Positions 10,404 through 34,298 of a stretch of 64,000 bases of DNA are shown piece after piece (position 1 is the first letter of the stretch; every line of letters begins with the position of its first letter). The notes below the pieces were generated by a model. It was given only the letters and a program-made list of their open reading frames with translations, was not told the DNA's origin and did not search any database. Origin of the DNA: Oceanisphaera marina (lineage in GTDB: Bacteria; Pseudomonadota; Gammaproteobacteria; Enterobacterales; Aeromonadaceae). A program made the translations under genes and the position numbers. Location of the stretch: the NCBI RefSeq assembly GCF_014643915.1, contig NZ_BMKE01000002.1, positions 132,132-196,131 on the forward strand. The letters are read 5' to 3'.

Positions 10404-10751
10404 TTAGCGGTGTTTAGGGGTTAACGGCTGTTGCTCATAGTGAATACCGGCCCAGCCGTGTTTGATGAAGTTACGGATATTTTGATGATCTTGTCCAGTC
10501 GGGTTAGCCAACACATTTTGATAATGTTGACCAAAACAGGTGAGCGCCTGCTCCTGGTTCAACTCGTGCAGTTGGGCAAAGGCAAAAATCTTGCACGAGC
10601 CATTGTTTTTCCCGGCTTCATTGTGCAGCTCACCGTTGTCAAAGGCGGTGGGAGTAAAGTCATAGCAGGCATCAATCACCGCCATCACCTCGGAAAATTC
10701 CATCTGCTCCGGCTGCTGTTGCAGCGCCGTAATCAACTCATGTTCGGTCAT
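10404..10751 (-). CDS. HopJ type III effector family protein (small conserved protein)
   Basis: 115 aa with the HopJ-family signature [24 protein letters not shown]…[14 protein letters not shown]. Confidence 0.65.
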
Positions 10752-21091: not shown

Positions 21092-21712
21092 ATGCAAGAC
21101 TTCACAGTGACCTCGCAACGCCGAGCCGAACTTTATCACTGGTTTACCGCCCTGTTTTCGGCTCCACTGGTCGAAGATGACATTAACGAGTTTGGCGGCT
21201 ATGACATGCATGCCTTTCTAAGCAGTCTGGCCACCCTGGATCCCTTGCGTGAAGCCACCGAAGCCTTTCGGGTGCAAGCCGATCAAGTGTTGCGGCTAAA
21301 GCAGCCACAAGCCGAGCTGAGCGGGCAATATCAGCAGCTGTTTGGTGAACCTTCTTTACTGGACACCTCGGCTTTGGCTGCGCCGGATGAAGAGTCGCTG
21401 TTTTTGATGAGCATATTATTACATCAACACGGCACTCAACTGCAGGATGACGATCCTCTCAATGCCTGTAATCAGCTGGAAATGATGGCCACCCTGGCGC
21501 TGGCTGCCGCCGCTGCCAATGACGAACAACAGTGTATTGCCCTGCTCGACCAGCAACGGGAGCTGGCCAACCAACTGCTGCTTAACTGGTTACCCGCATT
21601 CGTTGCTGCCTGTCAGCAACAGGACTCCCTGGGCTTTTACGCCGCCGCTGCGCAACTATTACTGGCCATGTTCAGCATGGATATTCATTATCTGAACAAT
21701 GTGGCGCAATAA
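21092..21712 (+). CDS. TorD/DmsD-family redox-enzyme maturation chaperone-like protein (orphan)
   Basis: 206 aa. The N-terminus (AELYHWFTALFSAPLVEDDINEF) and C-terminus (LLLNWLPAFVAACQQQDSLGFYAAAAQLLLAMF) align with E. coli TorD. No molybdoenzyme gene is nearby. Confidence 0.7.
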   Translation: MQDFTVTSQRRAELYHWFTALFSAPLVEDDINEFGGYDMHAFLSSLATLDPLREATEAFRVQADQVLRLKQPQAELSGQYQQLFGEPSLLDTSALAAPDEESLFLMSILLHQHGTQLQDDDPLNACNQLEMMATLALAAAAANDEQQCIALLDQQRELANQLLLNWLPAFVAACQQQDSLGFYAAAAQLLLAMFSMDIHYLNNVAQ

Positions 21713-22065
21713 TGGCCCATCACAAGCACGGCAAAGCCAGCCCATCGCCCCAGACTCAAGAAGAGGCTGAACGCGTGGCCAGGGCCACCCAGAAACCGGG
21801 GCAAACCAAAGAACAGACACGACTGATTGCCCAGGGTATTCAAAAGGGCATAGACGAATATAAAAAGCAGCAAAAGGCCCGCGCTCGGGCCGCCGACAAG
21901 GCGAAAAAACAACGCAGCCGCGAACAGGCCCCCCCCCGGACTGACGAGCAGGAAGAGTGGGCGCCAGCACCCCAAGCGATTGGCACATCCTGGTTACCCT
22001 GGGCGTTGCTGGTATCAAGCTGGATTGGTTTTGCCGTTTACTGGTGGCAACAACAACCCGGATAA
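21712..22065 (+). CDS. DUF2956-like small protein with C-terminal TM anchor
   Basis: 117 aa, Lys/Gln-rich (…KPGQTKEQTRLIAQGIQKGIDEYKKQQ…) with one C-terminal TM helix. Its start overlaps the torD-like stop. Confidence 0.6.
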   Translation: MAHHKHGKASPSPQTQEEAERVARATQKPGQTKEQTRLIAQGIQKGIDEYKKQQKARARAADKAKKQRSREQAPPRTDEQEEWAPAPQAIGTSWLPWALLVSSWIGFAVYWWQQQPG

Positions 22066-22074
22066 CCCACAGGA

Positions 22075-23049
22075 GTGCACATGGCCCTTAGCTTACCCGA
22101 ACACTGCCTTACTGCCGAAGGGGTTGAACGACGTCTTGGCGTTGAGCTTGAGCTAAACGGCCTGCCCCTGCCTCGGTTGGCCGGGCTGGTGGCCGAACAA
22201 CTCGGCGGCACTCTGCAACCGCAGTCGGAATACGAAATAGACATAGAAACACCTCTGGGTACCTTTCGCGCCGAGCTGGACTTCGATTATCTGAAACGGC
22301 TGGCGCGAGAACAGCTCAAGCAACCGCCCGGAGAACTCGAATTGGCTGCCACCGAGCTGTTGGGCACCCTGGCCTTTCAACTGGTACCACTCGAACTGAT
22401 CAGCCCGCCACTGCCCTTATCGCAGCTGGTCTGCCTAACACCCTTGTTTGAACGTCTGAGGCTGGCCGGCGCCAAAGGGACCCGCCATGCCCTGCACTAC
22501 GCTTTTGGTTTGCACCTTAATCCCGAGCTGCCAGATACCGATAGTCATACCCTGCTGCGCTACTTCAAGGCTTATTTATGCCTGCACGACTGGCTGGAAG
22601 AGCACGAAGACATAGTGGCTGCGCGCAAGGTGTCGCCCTATATTCGCGCCTTTGGCAAAGAGTACAGCCGCCGGGTTATCGACGTGCATTACTGGCCTGC
22701 CTTGCCCGCCTTTAGTGCCGATTATCTATTGGCCAATCCCAGCCGTAACCGGTCACTCGACTTGCTGCCCTTGTTGGCCTGGCACGATGAGGCGCAAGTA
22801 CAAAGAGCGGTACAGGACGACAAGGTCAACAAACGCCCCACCCTGCACTATCGTCTGCCCAACTCGGATATCGATAACCCCAACTGGTCCCTGGATCATG
22901 CCTGGCGGGGCTGGCTGCAGGTAGAGTCCCTGGCCAACGATGAACACCGGCTGGCCCAGGTATGCCAGCACTACGCCGCGCATCTTGACCAGCTCACGCC
23001 GGACTTCTTAAACCCGTGGAAATACAAGGTCATCCAATGGCTCCGCTAA
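22075..23049 (+). CDS. Putative amidoligase (Amidoligase_2 / glutamine-synthetase-like fold)
   Basis: 324 aa. The similarity is to the uncharacterised amidoligase enzyme family, which is typically paired with C26 gamma-glutamyl hydrolases. Confidence 0.6.
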   Translation: MHMALSLPEHCLTAEGVERRLGVELELNGLPLPRLAGLVAEQLGGTLQPQSEYEIDIETPLGTFRAELDFDYLKRLAREQLKQPPGELELAATELLGTLAFQLVPLELISPPLPLSQLVCLTPLFERLRLAGAKGTRHALHYAFGLHLNPELPDTDSHTLLRYFKAYLCLHDWLEEHEDIVAARKVSPYIRAFGKEYSRRVIDVHYWPALPAFSADYLLANPSRNRSLDLLPLLAWHDEAQVQRAVQDDKVNKRPTLHYRLPNSDIDNPNWSLDHAWRGWLQVESLANDEHRLAQVCQHYAAHLDQLTPDFLNPWKYKVIQWLR

Positions 23050-23726
23050 TTGGCGTCACCGGACCCGACAGCAGACTGCCCTGGGCCTGGTGGGCAACCC
23101 GTCTGGCCATTCGCCTGGCGGGTGGGCGGGCGCTGCGCTTGACCCCCAACAGCTTTCGACCCCACAAGAGAGACAAGCTGCAGGGGCTGATTATTGGCGG
23201 CGGCGACGACATAGATGCCGCCTTATACGGCGAAGACACCGGCCGCGCCCCGGCCGATCCCAGGCGGGATGCCTTTGAAATAGAGCTGATTGAGCACGCT
23301 CTGCAAACCCAACTGCCGTTATTGGGTATTTGCCGCGGTGCCCAGCTGATCAACGTGGTACTCGGGGGATCCTTGCATGCCGATATTCGCCCCCAACGCC
23401 AACACACTTCCAACCGTCGCACCCTGCTACCACGCAAAACCGCCCTGGGCACAGGCGAGGGGCGGTTACATCATATTATGGGCCAGTCACGCTGGCGTAT
23501 TAACAGCCTGCATCATCAGGCGGTCAAACGACTGGGCGCTCAGCTTGAGGTGACTGCACGCGATCTGGACGGCTTTGTACAGGCCATCGAATATCGGGGC
23601 GATCACGCCATTCTGGGAGTACAGTGGCATCCGGAATACCTGCCTTATCTGGCTGGTCAGCGGGAAATTTTTCGCCATTTAGTGGCGCTGGCCAAAGCCA
23701 CCTCTCCCGAGCGACTCTATCCCTGA
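23037..23726 (+). CDS. Class-I glutamine amidotransferase-like / peptidase C26 gamma-glutamyl hydrolase (PuuD-like)
   Basis: The catalytic Cys is in GICRGAQLIN, with the His in the LGVQWHPE context, matching PuuD (GICRGLQ…GVQWHPE). Start chosen at MAPLIGVTG, overlapping the amidoligase by 13 nt. Confidence 0.8.
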   Translation: MAPLIGVTGPDSRLPWAWWATRLAIRLAGGRALRLTPNSFRPHKRDKLQGLIIGGGDDIDAALYGEDTGRAPADPRRDAFEIELIEHALQTQLPLLGICRGAQLINVVLGGSLHADIRPQRQHTSNRRTLLPRKTALGTGEGRLHHIMGQSRWRINSLHHQAVKRLGAQLEVTARDLDGFVQAIEYRGDHAILGVQWHPEYLPYLAGQREIFRHLVALAKATSPERLYP

Positions 23727-24157
23727 TGCTGGATTACCTCATTGTTTTTACCAGCAGCCTGCTGGCGGCCACCATAGCGCCCTTTTACTCGGAAGTGGTG
23801 CTGGCTGCCGTGCTCACCCGCCAGCCCGACGCCGCCCTGTTGTTGTGGTTGCTGGCAAGCATCGGCAATACCCTGGGCGCCATCGTCAACTGGTGGCTCG
23901 GCAAATACCTGCTGCATTATCGCCACAAGCGCTGGTTCCCCATCAAGGAAAAACAATTAGTCAAAGCCCAGGCCGGCTTTCAGCGCTTTGGCGTCTGGAG
24001 CTTGTTGTTGTCCTGGGCGCCCATCGGCGGCGATGCCCTGACCTTTATTGCCGGCATCATGAAGGTACAGCTGCTGCCTTTTACGCTGTTGGTGTTTATT
24101 GGTAAGGCAGCCCGCTACGCCGTGGTGATCTGGCTTGCGGATACGCTGCTGTTGTAA
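23726..24157 (+). CDS. yqaA: YqaA-family (DedA-related) inner-membrane protein
   Basis: Aligns with E. coli YqaA along its length (…NSEVVL…LLSW.P..GD…GKA.RY…). Start at MLDYLIV. Confidence 0.75.
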   Translation: MLDYLIVFTSSLLAATIAPFYSEVVLAAVLTRQPDAALLLWLLASIGNTLGAIVNWWLGKYLLHYRHKRWFPIKEKQLVKAQAGFQRFGVWSLLLSWAPIGGDALTFIAGIMKVQLLPFTLLVFIGKAARYAVVIWLADTLLL

Positions 24158-24193
24158 AAAGGGCCCTGTCGTTGCCGACAAGGCCCTTGGGGA
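24155..24193 (-). terminator. Terminator downstream of telA (a hairpin shared with convergent yqaA)
   Basis: agggccctgtcg-ttgc-cgacaaggccctt stem with TTTTT on the minus strand. Confidence 0.55.
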
Positions 24194-25276
24194 TTAAAAG
24201 GTCTGGCGTAAAGCCTGCTTGAGTTCCTCTTCGGCGCGAGCAATTTCCAGCTCGGCCGCGGCCCGTTGCCGACGCCCGTCACGATAATGCTCCAGGGTGC
24301 TGTTGAGGGTATCTATGGTGATGCGGTTCACTTCTTTCAGGGAGTCCAGATCCAGAATGCCGCGCTGGTAATTACCGGCAATCTCCTGCTCCAGCTGCTG
24401 CAGCTTCTGGGCATTACGTACATATTGCTGATTGGTATAGTCTTTGACGGCTCGCGTCACCTGCAAGGCCTTTTCTTTTTCATAGTTGGAAATTGCAATC
24501 AAGAATTGCCGTTTCCATAACGGAATGGTGTTGTGACAGATATCCTGAATATCTTCCATCAACATCTTGTTGCCTTCTTGGGACAGCCGGATTTGCGGTG
24601 CGGTTTGCAGTGCCGCCAGGCGCACCGCACTCAGATTGGCCAGACGTTTTTCCAGGCGCCCCAGCGCCTGTTGCAAATCACGCAATGCCTGTGCATCTAC
24701 CGGATCGCCGCTTGCCTCGGCCTTGCTCTGCAAGGTGGGCACCTGCTGTTCAAGCAAGGTGTTCAGCTTAAGCTTGCCGGCGGCAATATACACATCCAGT
24801 TGCTGCAGTAGATGCAAATTTTCCTGATACAAGCCATCGAGGCGCTCAATATCCGTGGTCAGTTGGTGCTCATGGGCACGCAACTGCCCCTCCAGGGCAT
24901 CGAGACGATCCTTTACCGAATCAAACCCCTTGATAAAGCTGCCAAAGGTCTGAAACAGTTCGCCAATAAGCGGCAGGCGACTGAGAAAGCTGTCGGGGCG
25001 AATCCGGTCCAACTCACAGCCTTTCATCTGGCCTATCATGGCATCCAGAATGTCTCCGGCTTCGCCCGTATCTCGACTGCGAATATTATCCAGCACCCGA
25101 TCTGAAAAGGCGGTAATGCGCTCCATCGCCTCCTTGCCAAAGGTGATGGTCGCCACTGAATCGAGCGGATCAAGACTGGCGGCAATGCTCTGAACTGCCT
25201 GTTGTTCGTCTGTGTGCAGATCCCCTGGCCGCGTTTCGGCGAGAGCCTGTGTTTGCAAAACGGGTTCATTGGGCAT
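24194..25276 (-). CDS. telA: Toxic anion resistance protein, TelA/KlaA family
   Basis: 360 aa with full-length TelA-family similarity. Start set at the second ATG (MPNEP…), which has AAGGAG six nt upstream. It overlaps the PLD gene stop. Confidence 0.8.
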   Translation of the reverse strand: MPNEPVLQTQALAETRPGDLHTDEQQAVQSIAASLDPLDSVATITFGKEAMERITAFSDRVLDNIRSRDTGEAGDILDAMIGQMKGCELDRIRPDSFLSRLPLIGELFQTFGSFIKGFDSVKDRLDALEGQLRAHEHQLTTDIERLDGLYQENLHLLQQLDVYIAAGKLKLNTLLEQQVPTLQSKAEASGDPVDAQALRDLQQALGRLEKRLANLSAVRLAALQTAPQIRLSQEGNKMLMEDIQDICHNTIPLWKRQFLIAISNYEKEKALQVTRAVKDYTNQQYVRNAQKLQQLEQEIAGNYQRGILDLDSLKEVNRITIDTLNSTLEHYRDGRRQRAAAELEIARAEEELKQALRQTF

Positions 25277-25976
25277 GAAATACTCCTTCATGGTGTAGTT
25301 GCCACAAGCGGTTAAACTCCCCCACGTAGGCTGACACCAGCGGCTCGTTGTCGGTCAGCAACAGGTTTTCCTGGTTGTACTGGCTGGCGCTGCGCGTCCA
25401 GTTAAAGCTGCCATTGAGCAGCCAGCGTCGGTCGAACAGCGCGAACTTGTGGTGCATGTGATAGGGGCTGGTATCGAGCAAGACCTCGACGCCCTTGCGA
25501 CTAAGATAATCCACGTCACTGCCCCTGTCGTTGGCCTTGTCCTGATCGCTCAGCACCCGCACCGCCACCCCCTTGTTGTGGGCCGCCAGCACCGCCTGGG
25601 TAAGGCGATCGTCGGACAAGGTAAATACGCAAATATCCAGTTGCGTTCGGGTCTGCTCAATCAAGCCGATAATGGCCTCTAGACAATCGCGCCCCGGTGA
25701 AAACCAGGCCCCGGATGTGACTGGCTGTACCTGCAGGCGGGCACGATCCAGCGTCTGGATTACCCGCTCCAGCCAGATAACCACCTCGGTGTTTAACTGG
25801 CCGTCTCTGGAGCGTTCGCGCGCCAATTCAAAGGCTTTGTTACGGGCAAAGGACAATAACTCCGGCTGAGAGACCAGACCATCAAACAGCAGCCCCAGAT
25901 CTCGCCGCTCTTCCTTGGAAAGACGGCCATCGGCCAGGGTCAGTCGCAGCTGCATTTCCAGCTCTTGTTGTGTCAT
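25266..25976 (-). CDS. Phospholipase D-family (HKD) protein with an N-terminal TerB-like domain
   Basis: HKD motif HMHHKFALFD…GSFNWT. The N-terminus LTLADGRLSKEERRDLGLLFDGL resembles the TerB ADG motif. Its ATG overlaps the stop of the giant gene (ATGA). Confidence 0.75.
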   Translation of the reverse strand: MTQQELEMQLRLTLADGRLSKEERRDLGLLFDGLVSQPELLSFARNKAFELARERSRDGQLNTEVVIWLERVIQTLDRARLQVQPVTSGAWFSPGRDCLEAIIGLIEQTRTQLDICVFTLSDDRLTQAVLAAHNKGVAVRVLSDQDKANDRGSDVDYLSRKGVEVLLDTSPYHMHHKFALFDRRWLLNGSFNWTRSASQYNQENLLLTDNEPLVSAYVGEFNRLWQLHHEGVFHAQ

Positions 25977-28900
25977 TCGATAGACTCCTTATCCGCCGCG
26001 CCGACGAGGGCGGCTTTATCATCAGTGCCCTGCATCATGGACCAGGCCAGGGTGCGCAGGTGGCTGCCAATGCCCTTCATTTCATCGGCGATCACACCCA
26101 CCTTGTCGACCGGCTGATGCTGTTGGCGATAACGGGCGCAAATGGCGGCCCAGCGGTCGGCCTGCTCGGGTGTCAGAGTCCCGCGCAGCTCGGCCAGCTT
26201 GAGCAGGTTTTCTTCGGTGCCCTGGGTCAGTGTTTGCGCCTCGCCCAGATAGTGATCGTCAAGCAGGCGTTGCAGCTCTTGCTCTGTCATGACCGCCATC
26301 ACTTTTTCCGCCAGCTTGTTCATGTTGCGATAAGAGCCCTGCAACTTGAACGGCGGCTCGGTGCGGTAATCGTCGGCCGAGGCGGCGGACGCGATATATT
26401 GCTGGTTAACCTTGAGCACCACCTGCTGCACTTGCAACAACCGGCTGAGAACGCCGGTGATCTCGCGAGCTTCATGGGCGGAATAGTTGTATTCCAGCTC
26501 ACTGAGTGCAATGTCTTCGCCGCGCGCCATGGCCACCAGCAAGTAAAGGTCCTTGAGATTGCGACTGGCCAGCGGCGCCAGCACCGGGTTGGACGAGAGG
26601 GCATTTTCCACATAAGACAACTCAAAGGCCGCTCGCTGATCAGACAGCATGTCACCCAGGTTATAAATATCGGCGCGGTTGGCCAACATGTCGGGCAGGC
26701 GAAACACTTCTCCCGACTCGGTATAGGGATTGCCCGCCATCACCAGCGCAAAGCGCTTGCCTTTCATGTCATAGGTTTTGGGTTGGCCGCGCCAGACGCC
26801 ATCGATGCGCCGCGTGCCATCACTCAGGGAGATAAATTTCTGCAAAAACTCGGGGTGCGTATGCTGAATATCATCCAGATACAAGAGCACGTTAGCGCCC
26901 ATTTCCAGCCCCAGATTAAGCTTTTCTATCTCGCGGGCAGCGGTGGCATTAGGCGCATCCGCCGGATCCAGCGACACCACCTCGTGTCCCAGCGACGGGC
27001 AGTTGATTTTCATAAACACCATGCCCAGCTTGCCGGCTATGTATTCCACCAGTGTGGTTTTGCCGTAACCGGGAGGCGATATCAACATCAACAGACCCAT
27101 TTGATCGGTTCGACGAGCCGTTCCCATGGCCCCCAGTTGCTTGGCAAAGTTGTCTCCGATCAAGCCCAGATAAGACTCACTGATCAGTTTGTTGCGTACG
27201 AAGCCACTGAGCGGACGCGCCTGAAACTGATCGGGGCGCAACTCGTCTCTGGCTTGCTCGAGCAAAGTCGAGCGCCTCGCCTGAAAGGCATCAAAGGCCG
27301 GTAATACCTGTTGTTGGTGATATTCACCCCGCGTTAAAAAGTCATCCAGGCTGAGTATCAGCTCTCCCCCATCCAACCTCGGATGGTCGGCCAGTAATCC
27401 TTGCACGCGTACCGCCAACGAGAAATCGAGCGGGCGCAACACCAGCTCGCTGTGCTCTTTAAGGCAGGCCAGCGCCGCCGCTTCAACCACGAAGCTGTCG
27501 GGTCTTTGCTGCTGTTCACAAAATGCCTGCAGCCACAGTTGATGCTCGGCACAGCTCTCGACACTGATTGAACTATCACCCTGCCAACCTAAGCTGCGGC
27601 GAAAGGACAGATAATCCGAGGCCAGTTCATCCGCATCCCGGCTGATCAGGATATCGCCATCGATGGCGAGTTGGCGCAACAGATAGTCGGCGGTTTGCCG
27701 GGTATCTATCGCCTCGGCAACGAGCCCGAGTTCCTGTATCGACAACGCCAACTGCTGCTGTAATTGCTCATACAAAGATGACTGCCCAAGATGTTGTTGT
27801 AATTGCAGGGCGTCTTGACCACGGCGACGCCAGTGCTCGCGCTGGATCTTAGGCTGGGCAGATAACCACAAGAGCCCGGTCGCGCGGGCGCGCTGGCCAA
27901 AGCGTAATAATCCCGCCTCTCTATACAAGGGCCAGAGCGCCGTAAGCAGGCACACTGCGTCTTGATCGTGAATGCCCTTTACATAACCATCGCGATAACG
28001 GCTGGCAGCAAAACGCTGTACTAATCCGGTCAATGTGCCTTCTTTGAGCGCCGCTTCCAGCACCTCGGGCGAGAGGTCTTCTTGTCGGCGCTCCACTTGC
28101 TGCAACAGGCAGTAAGCCAGATATTCAGAGCGGCTAAGCTGCGGGCTTTCCGAGGGTAGCGTCAGCTCACCAAACCGGCTCAGGGTTTCCAGCTCGGCAT
28201 CCACCACCGGCTCGTAAAAGTCGGTGCCGGTAAGATGCAGCGCCAGTTGCTGCTGCCTTTGCACCAGGGTCAGGGCCGGCTCTTGAGTGTTGACCGCAAA
28301 CCGATGTCGACCCAGCTTGAGCACGCTGCCCCCCTGCTCAAAGATATCCTGATTATCTCGCAGGGTACTCATTGCCTGTTCTTTCAGGGTCTTTACGCGC
28401 CCGCGTACCGCTTCGGCACGCACGCTGCCGCCCAGTTGCTCCATTTGAGTGGCAAGCTGCGCCAGCTTGTGCACCATGGCATCGGCGGCAAAATAACCGT
28501 TAAGCTCCGCCAACTGGTCGAAACGTCGCACTCGCTTGTCGATGCTGGCCAGCGTAATCTCTGCCGCCTGCGCCAGGTTGTCGAGCCGCTTTTGTCGCGC
28601 CGCAAGCAACTGTTGTTTGCGCGATTCCAGACTGGACTGTATCTCGTCACGTTTGTGATAGATGTCAGCCAGAAACTGATCGAATTCGGCAAAACGGCTT
28701 TCCAGTTTTTCAATCATGCCCATCAGTCGCGCCTGCTGTTCGTCGCAGCTTTCTGGACTGTCGGCCTGCCCCAGTGCCGACGTGACCGCCTGGGTCAACA
28801 ACTTGAGCTGAGCCTCAAACTCGGCCTCTGCCTCGCCTTGACGCAGTTGCTGATGACGCTGGCGCAATCGAGCCAGACAGGCATTGAGCCGCGCCACCAC

Positions 28901-30898
28901 TTCAGTAGTCAGATCGAGAATACGGGTCGCCTGGGTCGCATCCTGAGTTTCAATTTCGGCCACTTCTTCGTTGATCAGATCCAAAGACTGATGGATTTCA
29001 TCCGCCTGCTCACGCAGTCGATCCAGCTCGACTGTGGTAGTACATTCGGGCAGAGCCCGTTCCAGCTCATCAATGACCTTGAGAAAAGGCTGATACGCCT
29101 GCTCTTTCTGTAACAACCCCAGCAGTCGCTGATTAAGCTGCTCACGGCCGTGTTCGAGCTGTTGCTCCAGCTCCAACAGACGTGCTTCATCCACATAACG
29201 GCCACCCTTGAGACTGATCACCCGCCCCAGCTGGGTTTTGATTCCGGCCAATAATTGAATAAGCTGCGCGGCATCGTCATCCGGGCTCAGTTTGATGCGG
29301 CCCAGCAACGTCTGCTGCTCCTGCGCCAACTCGGCAATGGCGCTATCGGTTTGCTGGCGCAACAGCTGTACCTTGGCAAACTCATCGACGATTTGTTCGG
29401 CGGTGGTGGTGATTTCACGCACCTGAGCACCCAACTTGCCTGCTGCATCGTCATCGAGCCAATGATAGTTATCGAGCGTGCGTCCACAAAAGGTCACCAG
29501 AATTTCATACAGCGAACGGGTCACCTCCTGGGTACGACAATAGGAGACGATACTGTTGATTTCGGCGATACCACGCACCAGTTCGGCATTGCCGATATTG
29601 GCGAAAAAAGGATGTTGATGCTGGTGTTGGTCAGCCTCGTAAATTTCGAGGGTCATGAACGGCGTTTGCCAGATGCGCAGCGGGTGCAGTTTGCTGGCCA
29701 CACTGTTATCAGTGAGGCGAAACATCAACATGCGGCCATCGTTATAAAGGCTGTAGCCGTGATTGTAGTTAGGTGGACTGACGCTTTTCTCGATCAGGTT
29801 GTAGCTATAGTGCAGGTAGGCGCCTTGAACGGGATCAAAAAAGATAAACAGCACATCTTCGCCATTGGGAGCCTGTTCCCGATGGAAATAGCGCATCTGC
29901 CGCCAGTCTTCGTCAAATAGCCGAGCGTCTCCATCGGCCAGCAGATAGCCGTTGGCAAATAACAGGCCGTGATCTTCTGGTAGTAACTTGCAGCTCGCCC
30001 CGATGGCATCGGCGCGCACGACTTTTTCGGTCAGTCGGTTGTACGCCAGATAACGGTAGTCTTTCTCACGGTTAGGCCGCACCTTGAGCAGAATAAACCC
30101 CGCCGCCTCGGCATAATGGACTTCGGTATCGGCCAGCGTCTGGTGGACGTCTTCCACCGGCTCGTTGAATATTTCCAGACCGTCGGGGGTGTTGTTTTCA
30201 ATACGAACACTGAGGCTGCCTGCCAGACAGTCGACAAACAGCTGATCGAGGATCATCAGGTGTGGTCTGTCTCCCTGCACCTGATGATCTCGCCCTGCCA
30301 ACTGCCATTGCACATCCTGCTGGGGCGCTTCATCCAGCTGGGCTTGACCCGGATCGTCCAGATATTCGACGCGACCGTCTGCGTGCAGCTGCCAGCGATA
30401 GACCTTGCGATCTTCCAGCCGCGAGCCAATTTGAAACACCAGATACAACCAGCTGCCGCGCCGGCTGATTTGGGTCAAACGCGTATCTTTGTAGTAGGTG
30501 AGCAGTTCATTAAAGGAGTGGCGAAAACGGGCATCGTCGAGAAAAGTATCCGCCAGTGGCAGCTCTTCTACTCGAAACTGACCGTCATGTTCGACCAGTC
30601 GATATAATCCCAGTACTTCTTCCACGGACGGGACGGCTTTAAGCCCCACTTGTACACGATAGCCAAACAGCAAGAGGCCGTTGATCTGCGCTATGTCTAT
30701 GGGCAGGCAACGATGTTCGGTATGTACATTGACCCTGCCCAGCAGCTCCTGGGCTCGGGCACCAAAGGCCTGTTGGCGAGCCTGATTAAAACTGCCGGCA
30801 TCTTCGGCCAGCGCCTTGCCTTGCTCGGCCAGGCGGGCGCGCAGTATCTCGTAGGATCCTTCGCCGGCCACCGCCTCATTAAGTTGATGTTGTTCCAT
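25973..30898 (-). CDS. Giant (1641 aa) uncharacterised protein with extensive coiled-coil regions and one P-loop AAA+ ATPase module near residue 1320
   Basis: A single uninterrupted ORF. Walker A is LISPPGYGKTTL, Walker B is VLLYLDDIQH, and sensor-1 is ALVMAGNP. Residues about 480-900 are Gln/Leu/Glu/Arg-rich coiled coil. The N-terminal 450 aa show no similarity I recognise. Confidence 0.75.
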   Translation of the reverse strand: MEQHQLNEAVAGEGSYEILRARLAEQGKALAEDAGSFNQARQQAFGARAQELLGRVNVHTEHRCLPIDIAQINGLLLFGYRVQVGLKAVPSVEEVLGLYRLVEHDGQFRVEELPLADTFLDDARFRHSFNELLTYYKDTRLTQISRRGSWLYLVFQIGSRLEDRKVYRWQLHADGRVEYLDDPGQAQLDEAPQQDVQWQLAGRDHQVQGDRPHLMILDQLFVDCLAGSLSVRIENNTPDGLEIFNEPVEDVHQTLADTEVHYAEAAGFILLKVRPNREKDYRYLAYNRLTEKVVRADAIGASCKLLPEDHGLLFANGYLLADGDARLFDEDWRQMRYFHREQAPNGEDVLFIFFDPVQGAYLHYSYNLIEKSVSPPNYNHGYSLYNDGRMLMFRLTDNSVASKLHPLRIWQTPFMTLEIYEADQHQHQHPFFANIGNAELVRGIAEINSIVSYCRTQEVTRSLYEILVTFCGRTLDNYHWLDDDAAGKLGAQVREITTTAEQIVDEFAKVQLLRQQTDSAIAELAQEQQTLLGRIKLSPDDDAAQLIQLLAGIKTQLGRVISLKGGRYVDEARLLELEQQLEHGREQLNQRLLGLLQKEQAYQPFLKVIDELERALPECTTTVELDRLREQADEIHQSLDLINEEVAEIETQDATQATRILDLTTEVVARLNACLARLRQRHQQLRQGEAEAEFEAQLKLLTQAVTSALGQADSPESCDEQQARLMGMIEKLESRFAEFDQFLADIYHKRDEIQSSLESRKQQLLAARQKRLDNLAQAAEITLASIDKRVRRFDQLAELNGYFAADAMVHKLAQLATQMEQLGGSVRAEAVRGRVKTLKEQAMSTLRDNQDIFEQGGSVLKLGRHRFAVNTQEPALTLVQRQQQLALHLTGTDFYEPVVDAELETLSRFGELTLPSESPQLSRSEYLAYCLLQQVERRQEDLSPEVLEAALKEGTLTGLVQRFAASRYRDGYVKGIHDQDAVCLLTALWPLYREAGLLRFGQRARATGLLWLSAQPKIQREHWRRRGQDALQLQQHLGQSSLYEQLQQQLALSIQELGLVAEAIDTRQTADYLLRQLAIDGDILISRDADELASDYLSFRRSLGWQGDSSISVESCAEHQLWLQAFCEQQQRPDSFVVEAAALACLKEHSELVLRPLDFSLAVRVQGLLADHPRLDGGELILSLDDFLTRGEYHQQQVLPAFDAFQARRSTLLEQARDELRPDQFQARPLSGFVRNKLISESYLGLIGDNFAKQLGAMGTARRTDQMGLLMLISPPGYGKTTLVEYIAGKLGMVFMKINCPSLGHEVVSLDPADAPNATAAREIEKLNLGLEMGANVLLYLDDIQHTHPEFLQKFISLSDGTRRIDGVWRGQPKTYDMKGKRFALVMAGNPYTESGEVFRLPDMLANRADIYNLGDMLSDQRAAFELSYVENALSSNPVLAPLASRNLKDLYLLVAMARGEDIALSELEYNYSAHEAREITGVLSRLLQVQQVVLKVNQQYIASAASADDYRTEPPFKLQGSYRNMNKLAEKVMAVMTEQELQRLLDDHYLGEAQTLTQGTEENLLKLAELRGTLTPEQADRWAAICARYRQQHQPVDKVGVIADEMKGIGSHLRTLAWSMMQGTDDKAALVGAADKESIE

Positions 30899-30959: not shown

Positions 30960-33041
30960 TTACTCCTGTTTGGCGTCGCCTGTTACCAGCTGCTGCAGTT
31001 TATCCTGCAGGTTGCCGTTGCCATTGAGTTTGGTCAGCAGGTTGGCCAGCGCCAAATTGCTCACCGTGCCTGTGTCTATCTTGGAATTTTCCAGTACCGC
31101 GCGAATATCGTCGGACAGGCTGCGGCCTTGTTCAGTGTATTCACGCACCAGTGGCTTGAGCACTTCGCTGCTGCCAATGCGGCTGTCGAGTTTGGCGCTG
31201 CTCATCACGGTGCGACGCAGCTCTTCCATACCCTGACCGCCAAACAGCTTGATGTCCGCGTTGGACAGTGCCGTTGCCAGTGCCTTGGCACTGTCGACCG
31301 ACATCGACTTTTGGGCGTCGATACGGGCAATTTCCAGCTCTTTCTGCTGCTGCAGTTCCAGCACCCATTTGTCGTGCTCACGGGTTTGATCGTCAAATTT
31401 CTTCGCCGCTTCAAAACGTGCCGTCTGGGTTTCGGCTTCGGCCAGCCCTTTGGCGCGCAGCGCCTGGGCCTCGGCATCACCTTTGGCTCTGTGGCTTTCG
31501 GCTTCAGCCAGACCAAGCGAAGAAATAGCAGCGGCTTCGGCGTCGCCGGTTTCACGAATCGCCATGGCACGCTCGCGATCCACACCGACCTGCGCCAGCC
31601 CTTCGGCACTGATTTCTTCACGCAGGGCATGGGCCATGCGCTCTTTGGCTTCGGCACGTTTGGTTTCCTGAATCAGTTCGGCCTCGGCTTCGCGGGTCTT
31701 CACATTCAGATCGTTTTCCGCTTCGCGGGTACGGATCTTGATTTGAGCTTCGCTTTCCAGGGTTTGCTTTTCCATCCATTCCTGAGCAGCCTGCTTCTCG
31801 GTGCGGGCCATGACCACGGAGCGAATGCCCTCGGCTTCGGCTGCCGCCTCGGCCTCTACCAGGCGCACTTTTTTCTCGCGCTCGACAAGCTGGAAGGCGC
31901 GCAAATTGGCGGTTTCTTCTTCTTCACGTGCTATCTTGCGCTCGATTTCAACTCGCTGAGATTGCGTTTCCACCACCGCCTTGCGGGCTTCTTCCAGCGC
32001 AGCCTCTTTCTCCATGGTCTGCTGGGCAATTTCCCGCTCGGTACGTACCCGTTCGGTTTCCTTGGCGCGATTGACTTCTTCCTGCTGAATAGCCACCTGA
32101 CGCTCGTTGCTGCTGCGGGTTAAATCCACTTCCATCTGCAACGATTCCTGGCGCTTGGCCACGTTTTCTTCGGTCTGCAGACGCGCCAGTTCTTTTTGAC
32201 TGACATATTCCTGACGCTTCTCTTCGGTCAGGGCTTCTTCTTGAGCACGAATGATCTCGATTTCGCGCTTTACGCGAGCCAGGTTTTCCTGCTCCTGCTT
32301 ATCAAGCTGAGCGCGGTTGCTTTCGGCCTCTACGTTCTTTTGCTTGATTAAGGTTTGCTCGTCCTGACGAATGGCGTTGGTTTCAATATTTTTACTGGAG
32401 GTAATAGAAGCAATCTTGCGAATACCTTCCACATCCAATACGTTTTGCGGATCGTGGGCGTCAAAACAGGTCTGATCTACGCGGTCAATAACCACATCGT
32501 AGATCTTGAACCCATCCATCTCGGAGCCAATCACTTCCACCACAGCATCCCGAAATTCACGGCGGTTGGTGAGCAGCTCTTCAAATTCAAACTGCTTAAC
32601 GGCGGTTTTCAGGGCCTCTGAGAATTTGGGCTGAAAATGTTCTTTCAGCCGATCCAGCTGAGACGCACCAATGGTGGTGAACAGCTTGGCCACGCGAATA
32701 ATATCTTCTTCTTCGTGGTTAACACCGATATAGAAGTCTACTTTCAGGTCGGCACGAATATTATCCCGGCAATGCAAACCTTCCGATTCCTCACCCAACT
32801 GGTCTTTACGACCACTGCGGATCACCGAAATTTTCTTGCGCGTGATATCCATAAACTCACCGCGATTAACGACAGGCCACACAAAGGCACCGGTAAGCGT
32901 AGCGCGCGTCCGTCTGCTGCCGTTAACAATAAGTGCTTCACCTTCATGGCGTATTTTGTAATAGCGGCTGGTCAGAAAAACAAGTATCAAGACTATCAGG
33001 CCGGCAAGCCCACCGACAAAATAGTACAAAGGGGTAAACAT
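30960..33041 (-). CDS. Flotillin / SPFH (band-7) family protein, YqiK-like but extended (693 aa)
   Basis: N-terminal TM helix, then an SPFH domain, then a Glu/Ala/Arg/Lys-rich coiled coil of about 320 residues with repetitive EAE/AEA heptads. Confidence 0.8.
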   Translation of the reverse strand: MFTPLYYFVGGLAGLIVLILVFLTSRYYKIRHEGEALIVNGSRRTRATLTGAFVWPVVNRGEFMDITRKKISVIRSGRKDQLGEESEGLHCRDNIRADLKVDFYIGVNHEEEDIIRVAKLFTTIGASQLDRLKEHFQPKFSEALKTAVKQFEFEELLTNRREFRDAVVEVIGSEMDGFKIYDVVIDRVDQTCFDAHDPQNVLDVEGIRKIASITSSKNIETNAIRQDEQTLIKQKNVEAESNRAQLDKQEQENLARVKREIEIIRAQEEALTEEKRQEYVSQKELARLQTEENVAKRQESLQMEVDLTRSSNERQVAIQQEEVNRAKETERVRTEREIAQQTMEKEAALEEARKAVVETQSQRVEIERKIAREEEETANLRAFQLVEREKKVRLVEAEAAAEAEGIRSVVMARTEKQAAQEWMEKQTLESEAQIKIRTREAENDLNVKTREAEAELIQETKRAEAKERMAHALREEISAEGLAQVGVDRERAMAIRETGDAEAAAISSLGLAEAESHRAKGDAEAQALRAKGLAEAETQTARFEAAKKFDDQTREHDKWVLELQQQKELEIARIDAQKSMSVDSAKALATALSNADIKLFGGQGMEELRRTVMSSAKLDSRIGSSEVLKPLVREYTEQGRSLSDDIRAVLENSKIDTGTVSNLALANLLTKLNGNGNLQDKLQQLVTGDAKQE

Positions 33042-33096: not shown

Positions 33097-33690
33097 TTAT
33101 TGCTTGGTGATGAAATATCGCCGAGTCACATCATTGAAAGAAAGAATGCGAACTTCATCTCCATAATGCAGCTCTTCTTTATCATCACAATAAACATCAA
33201 GCTGATTTTCCACACTGCCACGAGTCACCACCACTTCACCGAAGTGTGCGCCCACTCGAGAAGTACGAACTCGAGCACGCATACCAATGTAATTGATGCT
33301 GGCGTAAACGCGGCTCTGATCAAACAAGGGAGCCAAAGGCTTCAGTATCCATGCAGCAAGGTAGAGACTGAGGTAACATGCCAGCGGTATGGCCAGAGTG
33401 GCGAGCGTATAAAACAGCCAGGCAGGAACCAAAGGCGTCACCAAATGAGAAAACATAAATAGTTCGGCCGTGGCTAAAAAAAACACCAAGGGTAAACTGA
33501 CCACGATGGGAATTTGAGTGATGCCTATGGGTAACAGCATATCGGGCAAGTCTGCGTCCACGTTCAGGCTGGGTAACAGCTCGTCAAACAAGCCGGTAAA
33601 TACCGAAAAGAGTAGCAGCAGTAAAAATAGCAAAAAGGGAATCGCTGTCATCACAACAGGAAAGGCAAAAAACGTTTGCCATACGTCCAT
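33097..33690 (-). CDS. YqiJ/NfeD-like inner-membrane protein (DUF1449) with a C-terminal OB-fold
   Basis: 197 aa with four TM helices and a soluble C-terminus (…GEVVVTRGSVENQLDVYCDDKEELHYGDEVRILSF…). It lies 55 nt upstream of the flotillin gene, as in yqiJK/nfeD-floT pairs. Confidence 0.7.
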   Translation of the reverse strand: MDVWQTFFAFPVVMTAIPFLLFLLLLLFSVFTGLFDELLPSLNVDADLPDMLLPIGITQIPIVVSLPLVFFLATAELFMFSHLVTPLVPAWLFYTLATLAIPLACYLSLYLAAWILKPLAPLFDQSRVYASINYIGMRARVRTSRVGAHFGEVVVTRGSVENQLDVYCDDKEELHYGDEVRILSFNDVTRRYFITKQ

Positions 33691-33816
33691 GATAAGGTCT
33701 CGTTTGTATGTTTACCCGATACTAAATGCGTATTCCAAAGTGAGCATCATATGCAGCATTTATTTTTGTGCTGCGCACAATCGAAAAGGAAACTAACAAA
33801 GCCATCTGCAATCGTC

Positions 33817-33841
33817 AACGTTAATATTTTATATTAACGTT
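33817..33841. promoter_or_regulatory. Perfect 11-bp inverted repeat AACGTTAATAT-ttt-ATATTAACGTT, about 125 bp upstream of the yqiJ-like gene; candidate operator
   Basis: Direct reading. It lies in the AT-rich divergent region between the yqiJ-like gene and acs. Confidence 0.5.
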
Positions 33842-34298
33842 ATTCACCCAACGACTTTCCAACCTTTTATAAGACCCAGTAAAATTCATCCTGTCGTAAT
33901 TTAAATAGTCGTTACCCCTCTAAATTCAGGGTGATTTAGTCGTACATACTGCTCTTGCTCAGCCATCGTCTTTAAAATAAAATCTTGCTAATAAATATCC
34001 AGCAACAGGCGCAGACCTTAACCTTTACTCATGCTCGTCACTAACATCAGAAAGCCGACGGCTTTGTTCATACTTCAAGCGGCATTTGCTATCGCTTTAC
34101 AACACGCATGCTACATGCGTGAATTTTGAACAAGCCGTACACTATCTGCATACAAACCAACAACAAAGCCTGCAAACTATGCTAGTAATGAGACATGGCT
34201 AGCCAAAAGTCTAATTGAGCGTGACGGCCTTCTGCGTCACCTTGTTACACAATAGTTACACCCCAGGGGTTATTGGTACTACACCAAGGAGCGGAATA

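Follow-up and report, generated by a model that had tools for sequence, protein, structure and literature searches.

A predicted single-HKD phosphodiesterase of the PLD6/Zucchini branch in a putative TelA-bearing variant of the PspA-linked band-7/AAA+ operon

Introduction

An operon in which PspA is linked to a band-7 protein and an AAA+ ATPase has been described by Ravi et al. (2024, mSystems, PMC11237479), who noted an HKD hydrolase in it "in some Proteobacteria" and allowed for abbreviated operons that are devoid of the CesT/Tir-PspA dyad. In Pseudomonas aeruginosa this operon type includes the bac cluster PA3732-PA3729 and PA3728; deletion of PA3731 leads to defects in biofilm, rhamnolipid and virulence (PMC2587700, PMC10948618), and PA3728-PA3732 were found to be induced in all phage-infected samples of this species (PMC12041424). 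Here we analyse a locus that may be assigned to the same type, located in a 64,000-nucleotide stretch of the Oceanisphaera marina genome (contig NZ_BMKE01000002.1, positions 132,132 to 196,131; the whole stretch is referred to below as the window, and coordinates without a locus number are positions in it), with a focus on the gene at 25266-25976 of the minus strand, which encodes a phospholipase D (PLD)-like protein with one HKD motif.

This protein can be compared with small single-HKD enzymes such as Nuc (Salmonella pKM101), NucT (Helicobacter) and animal PLD6/Zucchini, and also with the Mokosh system, in which a helicase (MkoA) is accompanied by a PLD enzyme (MkoB) or both are fused (MkoC). 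Domain homology has been taken to link MkoA and MkoB to MOV10L1 and PLD6 (bioRxiv 10.1101/2022.12.12.520048). A previous reading of this DNA made from its letters alone (hereafter the sequence-only reading) had proposed that the PLD protein carries a TerB-like N-terminal domain and that its gene is translationally coupled on one side to a giant ATPase gene and on the other to telA. As the PLD family is large and already annotated, and the presence of an HKD hydrolase in this type of operon has been published, the locus described here is not a categorically new finding.

Results

Catalytic domain

The open reading frame at 25266-25976 encodes a two-domain HKD phosphodiesterase of 236 amino acids, the PLD/HKD catalytic domain of which covers approximately residues 88-228 (25293-25715, minus strand), as delimited by the Pfam family PLDc_2, by similarity to PLD6 and by Foldseek. 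PLDc_2 (PF13091) matches residues 102-225 along its entire 132-position profile with an expectation value (E) of 1.6e-29, and its score of 102.8 bits against a cutoff of 27 puts the match far beyond chance. The HxK(x)4D motif is found at 25431-25454 (minus strand; H175, K177 and D182 in the peptide YHMHHKFALFD) and the GSxN motif at 25395-25412 (minus strand; GSFNWT, residues 189-194, with G189, S190 and N192). The sequence-only reading had taken these two motifs (HMHHKFALFD and GSFNWT) as the mark of a PLD-superfamily domain with only one HKD motif, and both statements are upheld, since the sequence and the Pfam match agree on one HKD unit per chain. Conservation of the HKD residues in orthologues, a check named in that reading, is likewise seen: in an alignment of 30 homologues with 43-79 % identity the HKD and GSxN residues are invariant, as are G, S, N, W and T of GSFNWT.

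The AlphaFold2 model of the protein (predicted local distance difference test, pLDDT, 88.9) has the PLD alpha/beta fold, and the best folds found for it by Foldseek are those of NucT (3.8e-12), mouse Zucchini/PLD6 (1.3e-11) and Nuc (2e-10), with target-normalised template modelling (TM) scores of about 0.8 for Nuc and NucT. Because these three are small dimeric single-HKD enzymes, a homodimer with paired HKD motifs is the natural expectation for the window protein as well. No transmembrane segment is present in the sequence or in the model. Taken at sequence level, the open reading frame is best read as encoding a catalytically intact single-HKD phosphodiesterase that is cytoplasmic and belongs, within the PLD superfamily, to the Nuc/NucT/Zucchini (PLD6) branch. 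In itself it is a common and broadly conserved 'PLD-like domain protein': the family has 1435 matches at E<=1e-5, a relative is encoded in more than 590 species genomes, and the closest genome is that of Oceanimonas baumannii (91 % identity).

Among proteins of solved structure, a phmmer search of the PDB placed PLD6 nearest (9lkx_K, E 1.5e-29, 38 % identity over 136 ungapped residues), with Nuc (2.7e-10) and NucT (3.4e-8) far behind; the PLD6 entries compared with the region 25293-25715 were 9lkx_K and 4ggj. The catalytic region of PLD6 in turn matches the hidden Markov model of the window PLD family from end to end at 134.6 bits, while the scores of PLD6 against the PADLOC models are 17.8 bits for MkoB, 23 for MkoC, 33 for DpdK and 32 for DrmC. 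With such a difference, amounting to about 100 bits, the window family appears, among bacterial relatives, to stand much nearer to PLD6 than do Mokosh MkoB/MkoC, or indeed any other defence-system PLD modelled in PADLOC. In NCBIfam the NucT models match the window protein, within its PLD domain only, at E of about 4e-13 with 50 bits, against equivalog cutoffs of 211-351, and NucT, DrmC and DpdK rank well above ClsB, whose match is negligible (E 0.023).

The likeness to PLD6 consists of a single HKD domain of about 140 residues with the same fold, to which may be added the expected location of the window protein at a membrane surface alongside scaffold proteins, as is the case for PLD6, and a pairing with a helicase in some bacterial lineages that recalls Zucchini with Armitage/MOV10L1. 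The two nevertheless differ in several respects: PLD6 has an N-terminal transmembrane anchor where the bacterial protein has a soluble four-helix bundle; of the residues invariant in the bacterial family K147 is replaced by Tyr and R195 by Thr in PLD6, and D150 and D154 are not conserved there; and the bacterial operon partners (flotillin-like, AAA+ and TelA) are without an established PLD6 counterpart. With Nuc and NucT the protein shares the single-HKD PLD fold and, by expectation, the homodimeric state, but the sequence relation is much weaker than that with PLD6. Nuc and NucT are secreted or periplasmic proteins with signal peptides, whereas the window protein would be cytoplasmic, has an additional N-terminal domain and is encoded in an operon.

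N-terminal domain

Residues 1-86 (25719-25976, minus strand) constitute a separate domain, delimited by the AlphaFold2 model and by conservation and predicted to be a four-helix bundle with helices at residues 3-14, 21-32, 38-55 and 63-81 (pLDDT 89.5, predicted TM-score 0.79). Its N-terminus is polar, acidic and soluble, being neither a membrane anchor nor a signal peptide, and eight residues are invariant (L10, D16, E23, R45, N46, F49, W68 and L69). The sequence-only reading had likened this domain to TerB on account of an ADG-containing helical motif, and had named a profile search as the test of the likeness. The ADG, in the context LADGRLSKEE (residues 14-23), and the helices are indeed present; of the 'ADG...E' motif, however, D16 and E23 alone are invariant in the family and G17 is not conserved, and neither is a second 'DG...E' at residues 58-64.

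With the Pfam TerB family (PF05099) the window protein gives no match, even when E values up to 10 are admitted. Among the N-terminal domains of 23 family members one reaches TerB at E 0.065 and two reach DUF533 at E 0.021, all of these matches being below threshold, and bona fide TerB and DUF533 proteins cross-match each other's Pfam models. A DnaJ-like domain was also considered and rejected, as none of the 23 domains gives a DnaJ-like Pfam signal at E<=10. A profile of the domain retrieved nothing relevant from the PDB and, from a collection of 5.8 billion sequences, only fragments of the same PLD family. In an exhaustive hmmsearch of 1.84 billion representatives 388 matches were obtained at E<=1e-3; the best 150 of these are all at most 293 amino acids long with the domain at or near the N-terminus, and therefore appear to belong to the same PLD family. 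Finally, hhalign gave 20.7 % with Klebsiella TerB (a query verified by its Pfam TerB match of 5.9e-23 and its 99 % identity to database TerB) and 7.5 % with an alignment of 17 TerB sequences, over 25-26 columns in both cases, and 0.5 % with DUF533; the TerB and DUF533 alignments span at most 33 columns, and the columns aligned with TerB are those of the D-G-x-h-x-x-x-E helix-loop-helix only (residues 14-39, set against the second such motif of TerB).

Similarity to TerB is lacking in the profile and profile-profile comparisons and at the level of the fold, and the TerB call is refuted by the very test that the sequence-only reading had named for it. The likeness comes down to one local D-(G)-x-h-x-x-x-E helix-loop-helix and to the adjoining telA gene, whereas the TerB Pfam domain is about 118 positions long and contains the motif twice. 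As far as such comparisons can tell, the resemblance is a local motif of the helix-capping type and not homology, and the domain would be a four-helix bundle of about 85 residues that occurs only in this PLD family.

Operon type and distribution

The PLD gene is the fourth of five genes on the minus strand, which in order of transcription encode YqiJ/NfeD-like, flotillin-like, beta-propeller/coiled-coil/AAA+ ATPase, PLD and TelA proteins. With the operon of Ravi et al. the window shares the flotillin-like band-7 gene and the AAA+ ATPase with a coiled coil and a probable N-terminal beta-propeller; it differs in the absence of the CesT/Tir-PspA dyad and in ending with TelA instead. We would accordingly classify it, from gene content and sequence, with the PspA-linked band-7/AAA+ envelope-stress operon, as a variant that bears TelA. 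The main text and one supplement of Ravi et al. make no mention of TelA, a comparison that does not extend to the 2012 Ter-system paper of Anantharaman, Iyer and Aravind. The P. aeruginosa counterpart of the upstream part of the operon is the bac cluster PA3732-PA3729; PA3726, considered as the PLD of that species, was rejected since it is YaeQ.

Gene neighbourhoods were counted in 63 species loci in which the PLD gene is flanked by at least 9 kb upstream and at least 2 kb downstream. The giant ATPase gene lies directly upstream of the PLD gene in 47 of them and a flotillin-like gene is present in the same number, an NfeD-like gene precedes the flotillin-like gene in 37, and a rhomboid gene stands between ATPase and PLD genes in 26. 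The gene order is the same in Oceanimonas, Vibrio, Pseudomonas and Ideonella, and the orthologous Pseudomonas and Ideonella loci have DUF2170 and PspA upstream. PspA is encoded upstream in 28 of the 63 loci and TelA downstream in nine, all from Oceanimonas or Vibrionaceae; the CesT/Tir (DUF2170)-PspA dyad is absent from the window and from all nine TelA-type loci. That TelA and PspA never occur together (0/63) suggests that one core module takes either TelA or CesT/PspA as its accessory partner. A remote homology of TelA with PspA/ESCRT-III was considered and rejected (hhalign 0.2 %), so that the relation of TelA and PspA, which are not detectably homologous, is positional and phyletic only.

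The remaining 16 loci are 'orphans' without the ATPase gene. No conserved theme was found among the neighbours of their PLD genes, which include T6SS (type VI secretion system)/lipase, GGDEF-EAL/HDOD, sulfatase, Ser/Thr kinase, beta-propeller protein and helicase genes. In a metagenome-assembled genome of Rhodocyclaceae (L088:1-9374), the PLD gene lies just downstream of T6SS genes (TssG and a ClpV-like ATPase), Lipase_3 and two tetratricopeptide-repeat proteins, with a TIR-domain gene nearby, surroundings that differ greatly from those in the window. The rhomboid intramembrane protease gene is seen in many Pseudomonas, Cellvibrio and Limnobaculum loci (e.g., L006, L009, L015 and L022), and at L071:10693-11274 it stays beside the PLD gene even where the ATPase gene is missing. 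On one Vibrio chromosome a Y1 transposase gene (Pfam Y1_Tnp, L004:11996-12457) immediately follows telA.

Helicase partners in other lineages

An Upf1-like superfamily 1 helicase gene (AAA_11/AAA_12) directly follows the PLD gene in eight Ectopseudomonas/Pseudomonas loci (L033, with the helicase at 10675, L036, L040, L047, L048, L054, L060 and L063). In L033 (Ectopseudomonas), the one locus read at sequence level, the ATG of the helicase gene overlaps the stop codon of the PLD gene (TGATG). A 36 %-identical helicase with a C-terminal MTES_1575 domain of the restriction-endonuclease fold is encoded 359 nt after the PLD gene in Motilimonas (L012:11040-13844), and in Pleionea (L089:3341-7564) a DUF4011/Hhe-like helicase gene is located 437 nt upstream of it (PADLOC PDC-S37, E 0; Hhe, 1e-218). 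The best PADLOC matches of the Ectopseudomonas and Motilimonas helicases are MkoC (3e-44) and MkoA (5e-27), and the pairing may be seen as an echo of the MkoA/MkoB and MOV10L1/PLD6 pairs. The window operon itself contains no helicase gene, the position at its 3' end being taken by telA.

Genes of the operon

The first gene (33097-33690, minus strand) encodes a membrane protein of 197 residues (YqiJ/YuaF, NfeD-like) that begins with hydrophobic helices and ends in a small soluble domain rich in beta structure. It has no Pfam match, and a profile of four orthologues aligns only marginally with Bacillus subtilis YuaF (2k14; E 0.25, C-terminal 60 residues), so that this weak sequence evidence is consistent with the 'YqiJ/YuaF 3TM protein' of Ravi et al. 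The second gene (30960-33041, minus strand) encodes a protein of 693 residues with an N-terminal transmembrane helix, an SPFH/band-7-like region, a long coiled coil rich in E, A, K and R, and a flotillin-like C-terminal part. It matches NCBIfam FloT (E 7.6e-6) and Pfam Flot (E 0.024), and a four-sequence orthologue profile searched against the PDB found Flotillin-2 (E 0.054); weak but consistent, the putative flotillin-like assignment agrees with the description of Ravi et al., with the position of the gene and with its architecture.

The third gene (25973-30898, minus strand) encodes an ATPase of 1641 residues comprising DUF3686 (residues 30-479), DUF7902, a coiled coil and a C-terminal AAA+ domain, with Pfam E values of 2.2e-150 for DUF3686, 2.1e-16 for DUF7902 and 9e-7 for AAA; no relative was found for it in the PDB. 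Walker A (SPPGYGKTT, about residue 1277) and Walker B (LYLDDIQH) are conserved in six orthologues. The Walker B motif (the two motifs lying within about residues 1277-1350) has Asp-Asp in place of the usual Asp-Glu, and this Asp-Asp is kept in the Vibrio, Pseudomonas, Ideonella and Motilimonas orthologues. Judging from position and architecture, DUF3686 probably corresponds to the 'beta-propeller repeats' of Ravi et al. Its Pfam title, 'ATPase involved in DNA repair', was discounted as evidence of a role in DNA, as only weak matches of the coiled-coil type were seen (LmuB, TrlF, RuvB P-loop), and a literature search on DUF3686 returned nothing. The last gene, telA (24194-25276, minus strand), encodes 360 residues followed by a stop codon, has an alternative in-frame ATG at 25291 and matches Pfam TelA (PF05816) at E 1.2e-79.

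Gene junctions and terminator

The PLD start and the ATPase stop share an ATGA at 25973-25976 of the minus strand (PLD ATG 25976-25974, ATPase TGA 25975-25973), as the sequence-only reading had stated, and an AAGGAG Shine-Dalgarno sequence for the PLD gene lies inside the ATPase gene, 8 nt before the ATG (25985-25990, minus strand). The same 4-nt overlap is present in a second Oceanimonas, in two Vibrio species, in Ideonella (L007/L025) and in Aquabacterium (L085), the last two genera being betaproteobacterial. At the other end of the PLD gene, both in-frame ATGs of telA (25291 and 25276) are inside its 3' part; gene callers start TelA at 25276, giving an 11-nt overlap, and a further AAGGAG is found 6 nt before this ATG, within the PLD gene (25283-25288, minus strand), so that the earlier description of a telA start inside the PLD 3' end behind AAGGAG is accurate too. 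Across genera the gap to the preceding gene is between -14 and +12 nt in most loci. The overlaps do not recur exactly in every lineage: telA starts at -11 nt relative to the PLD gene in Oceanimonas and at +8 to +15 nt in Vibrionaceae, always with a Shine-Dalgarno-like sequence ahead. Because of the gene overlaps, it is reasonable to suppose that ATPase, PLD and TelA would be co-translated in that order.

Directly after the telA stop codon there is an intrinsic terminator (24156-24188, minus strand) consisting of a 13-bp GC-rich hairpin followed by UUUUU; its predicted RNA fold has -25.1 kcal/mol with a z-score of -5.9, and none of 200 shuffles was equally stable. This terminator marks the end of the operon.

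Upstream region and flanking genes

Between the operon and the divergent acs gene lies an AT-rich intergenic region of about 520 bp (33691-34214), picked out by its composition (about 43 % GC, against about 56 % around it) and presumed to contain promoter and regulatory elements. A sigma-70 promoter scan of this spacer scored no better than shuffles; in P. aeruginosa a sigma-54 site has been proposed upstream of PA3732. The locus as a whole matches its surroundings in GC content, has no tRNA gene nearby and is of core-genome composition and context, and a genomic island or horizontal transfer was rejected on these grounds. A convergent cluster of five genes on the plus strand (21092-24157) ends at the shared terminator region and encodes a NarJ-like protein (Nitrate_red_del), DUF2956, Amidoligase_2, a Peptidase_C26/GATase and a VTT/DedA membrane protein. 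It resembles a small module for a metabolite with a peptide or amide bond, is found in the close relative L001 and is not beside the Vibrio operon.

Discussion

What the sequence-only reading had observed in the DNA is confirmed in every particular, and its interpretation is partly supported. As regards the function of the PLD protein, knowledge of the family suggests that two subunits would pair their HKD motifs into one active site, in which His175 would attack the phosphodiester by way of a covalent phospho-histidine intermediate, as in Nuc. From the context, the N-terminal domain may be a docking or regulatory adaptor tying the PLD protein to the ATPase and the scaffold, and the enzyme, being tethered in this way, would do its work on the inner side of the membrane upon perturbation of the envelope, with TelA, presumably a membrane-binding partner, filling the accessory slot that is held by CesT/Tir-PspA (upstream) in most other lineages.

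With a probability that we put at roughly 45 %, the substrate would be nucleic acid, the PLD protein acting as a membrane-proximal endonuclease of the Zucchini/Nuc type on single strands. To our knowledge, the purified members of the small single-HKD clade (Nuc, NucT, BfiI and Zucchini) are nucleases; further points in favour are the ranking of NucT, DrmC and DpdK over ClsB and the recurrent, partly translationally coupled helicase partner.

A number of observations speak against a nuclease. All the conserved partners in the window are membrane proteins or membrane-associated (NfeD-like, flotillin-like and TelA), as are PspA and rhomboid elsewhere, and no nucleic-acid-binding domain is present in the window operon. 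The PLD domain is mildly acidic (median isoelectric point 6.1) and the N-terminal domain more so (5.3), unlike typical non-specific nucleases, and PLD6 has been reported as a cardiolipin hydrolase as well. The core-genome composition and context of the locus are not those of a defence island, and the association with a helicase, which the window lacks, extends to no more than two or three lineages. The orphan proteins, which have no ATPase beside them, still carry the N-terminal domain, and the role proposed for this domain is pure inference.

A near-equal alternative is that the enzyme is directed at lipids, hydrolysing or transphosphatidylating the anionic phospholipids of the inner membrane (cardiolipin or phosphatidylglycerol to phosphatidic acid) in microdomains organised by flotillin; the resulting change of curvature and charge would let PspA or TelA, together with the AAA+ ATPase, remodel or reseal the damaged membrane, as a bacterial counterpart of the membrane fusion driven by MitoPLD. 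This would sit well with neighbours that are all linked to membranes, with a PLD-rhomboid pair that persists without the ATPase in L071, with an acidic and not basic protein, with a core-genome context that is vertically conserved, and with the placing of the operon in membrane dynamics and cardiolipin-rich domains by Ravi et al. (PMC11237479). PLD6, the closest characterised relative, is moreover deposited in the PDB as 'mitochondrial cardiolipin hydrolase'. The lipid activity of PLD6 is contested, however, and we know of no purified small single-HKD enzyme of this clade with robust lipid activity. The PLD protein also has no transmembrane segment, its match to ClsB is negligible (E 0.023), and a lipid enzyme would not readily account for the translationally coupled Upf1-like helicase of Ectopseudomonas.

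It is quite improbable that the PLD protein is a stand-alone anti-phage effector (of Mokosh, DISARM or Dpd type) with no tie to the membrane-stress genes beside it. Helicases resembling those of Mokosh do adjoin the PLD gene in some lineages, where a PLD enzyme and a COG1112/Upf1-like helicase are found together (Ectopseudomonas and Motilimonas), and PADLOC models match the window protein, namely DrmC (6e-9), DpdK (1e-7), MkoC (1.2e-6) and MkoB (3.9e-6). These matches are nevertheless partial, restricted to the PLD domain and far below family-level scores (24-25 bits for MkoB/MkoC), PADLOC calls no defence system in the window, and the partner genes of Mokosh, DISARM and Dpd are absent from it, for which reasons a known defence system at this locus was rejected. 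Differing from Mokosh, the window has no helicase and is a membrane-stress operon in a core-genome context; in addition, the PLD gene is coupled to both telA and the ATPase gene, the latter being associated with it in 47 of 63 species, and no island features are present. Least credible of all is a TerB-PLD fusion acting with TelA in the tellurite-resistance (Ter) stress network, for which the local 'DGxhxxxE' motif, the sub-threshold matches of 3 of the 23 family members to TerB or DUF533 and the telA gene next door could be cited, since in addition to the negative profile comparisons and the lack of conservation of the motif described above TelA is encoded in just nine of the 63 loci, and the PLD family is therefore not primarily a Ter component.

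Returning to the nuclease reading, a more far-reaching view can be built upon it, which we regard as unlikely. Eukaryotic PLD6/Zucchini may have its closest bacterial relative, and possibly its source, in the proteobacterial PLD family and not in Mokosh MkoB; the natural home of this family would be a 'phage-shock' module of the core genome, in which the detection of envelope damage (flotillin-like, NfeD-like, PspA or TelA, giant AAA+) is coupled to the cleavage of nucleic acids at the membrane. The pair of PLD and Upf1-like helicase in Ectopseudomonas and Motilimonas would then be the prokaryotic antecedent of Zucchini-Armitage/MOV10L1 on the mitochondrial surface, with TelA as a functional stand-in for PspA.

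In conclusion, in this study: the reading of the N-terminal domain as a TerB fusion was refuted and the domain defined as a putative four-helix adaptor specific to the family; a variant with TelA in place of PspA was recognised in Oceanimonas and Vibrionaceae; and a coupling of the PLD enzyme with a helicase was found in some lineages. We know of no account of the mechanism of TelA, which now has a defined group of partners to examine. [quoted passage not shown] An operon that is tractable in bacteria such as Vibrio and Pseudomonas could settle the role of this HKD clade at membranes.

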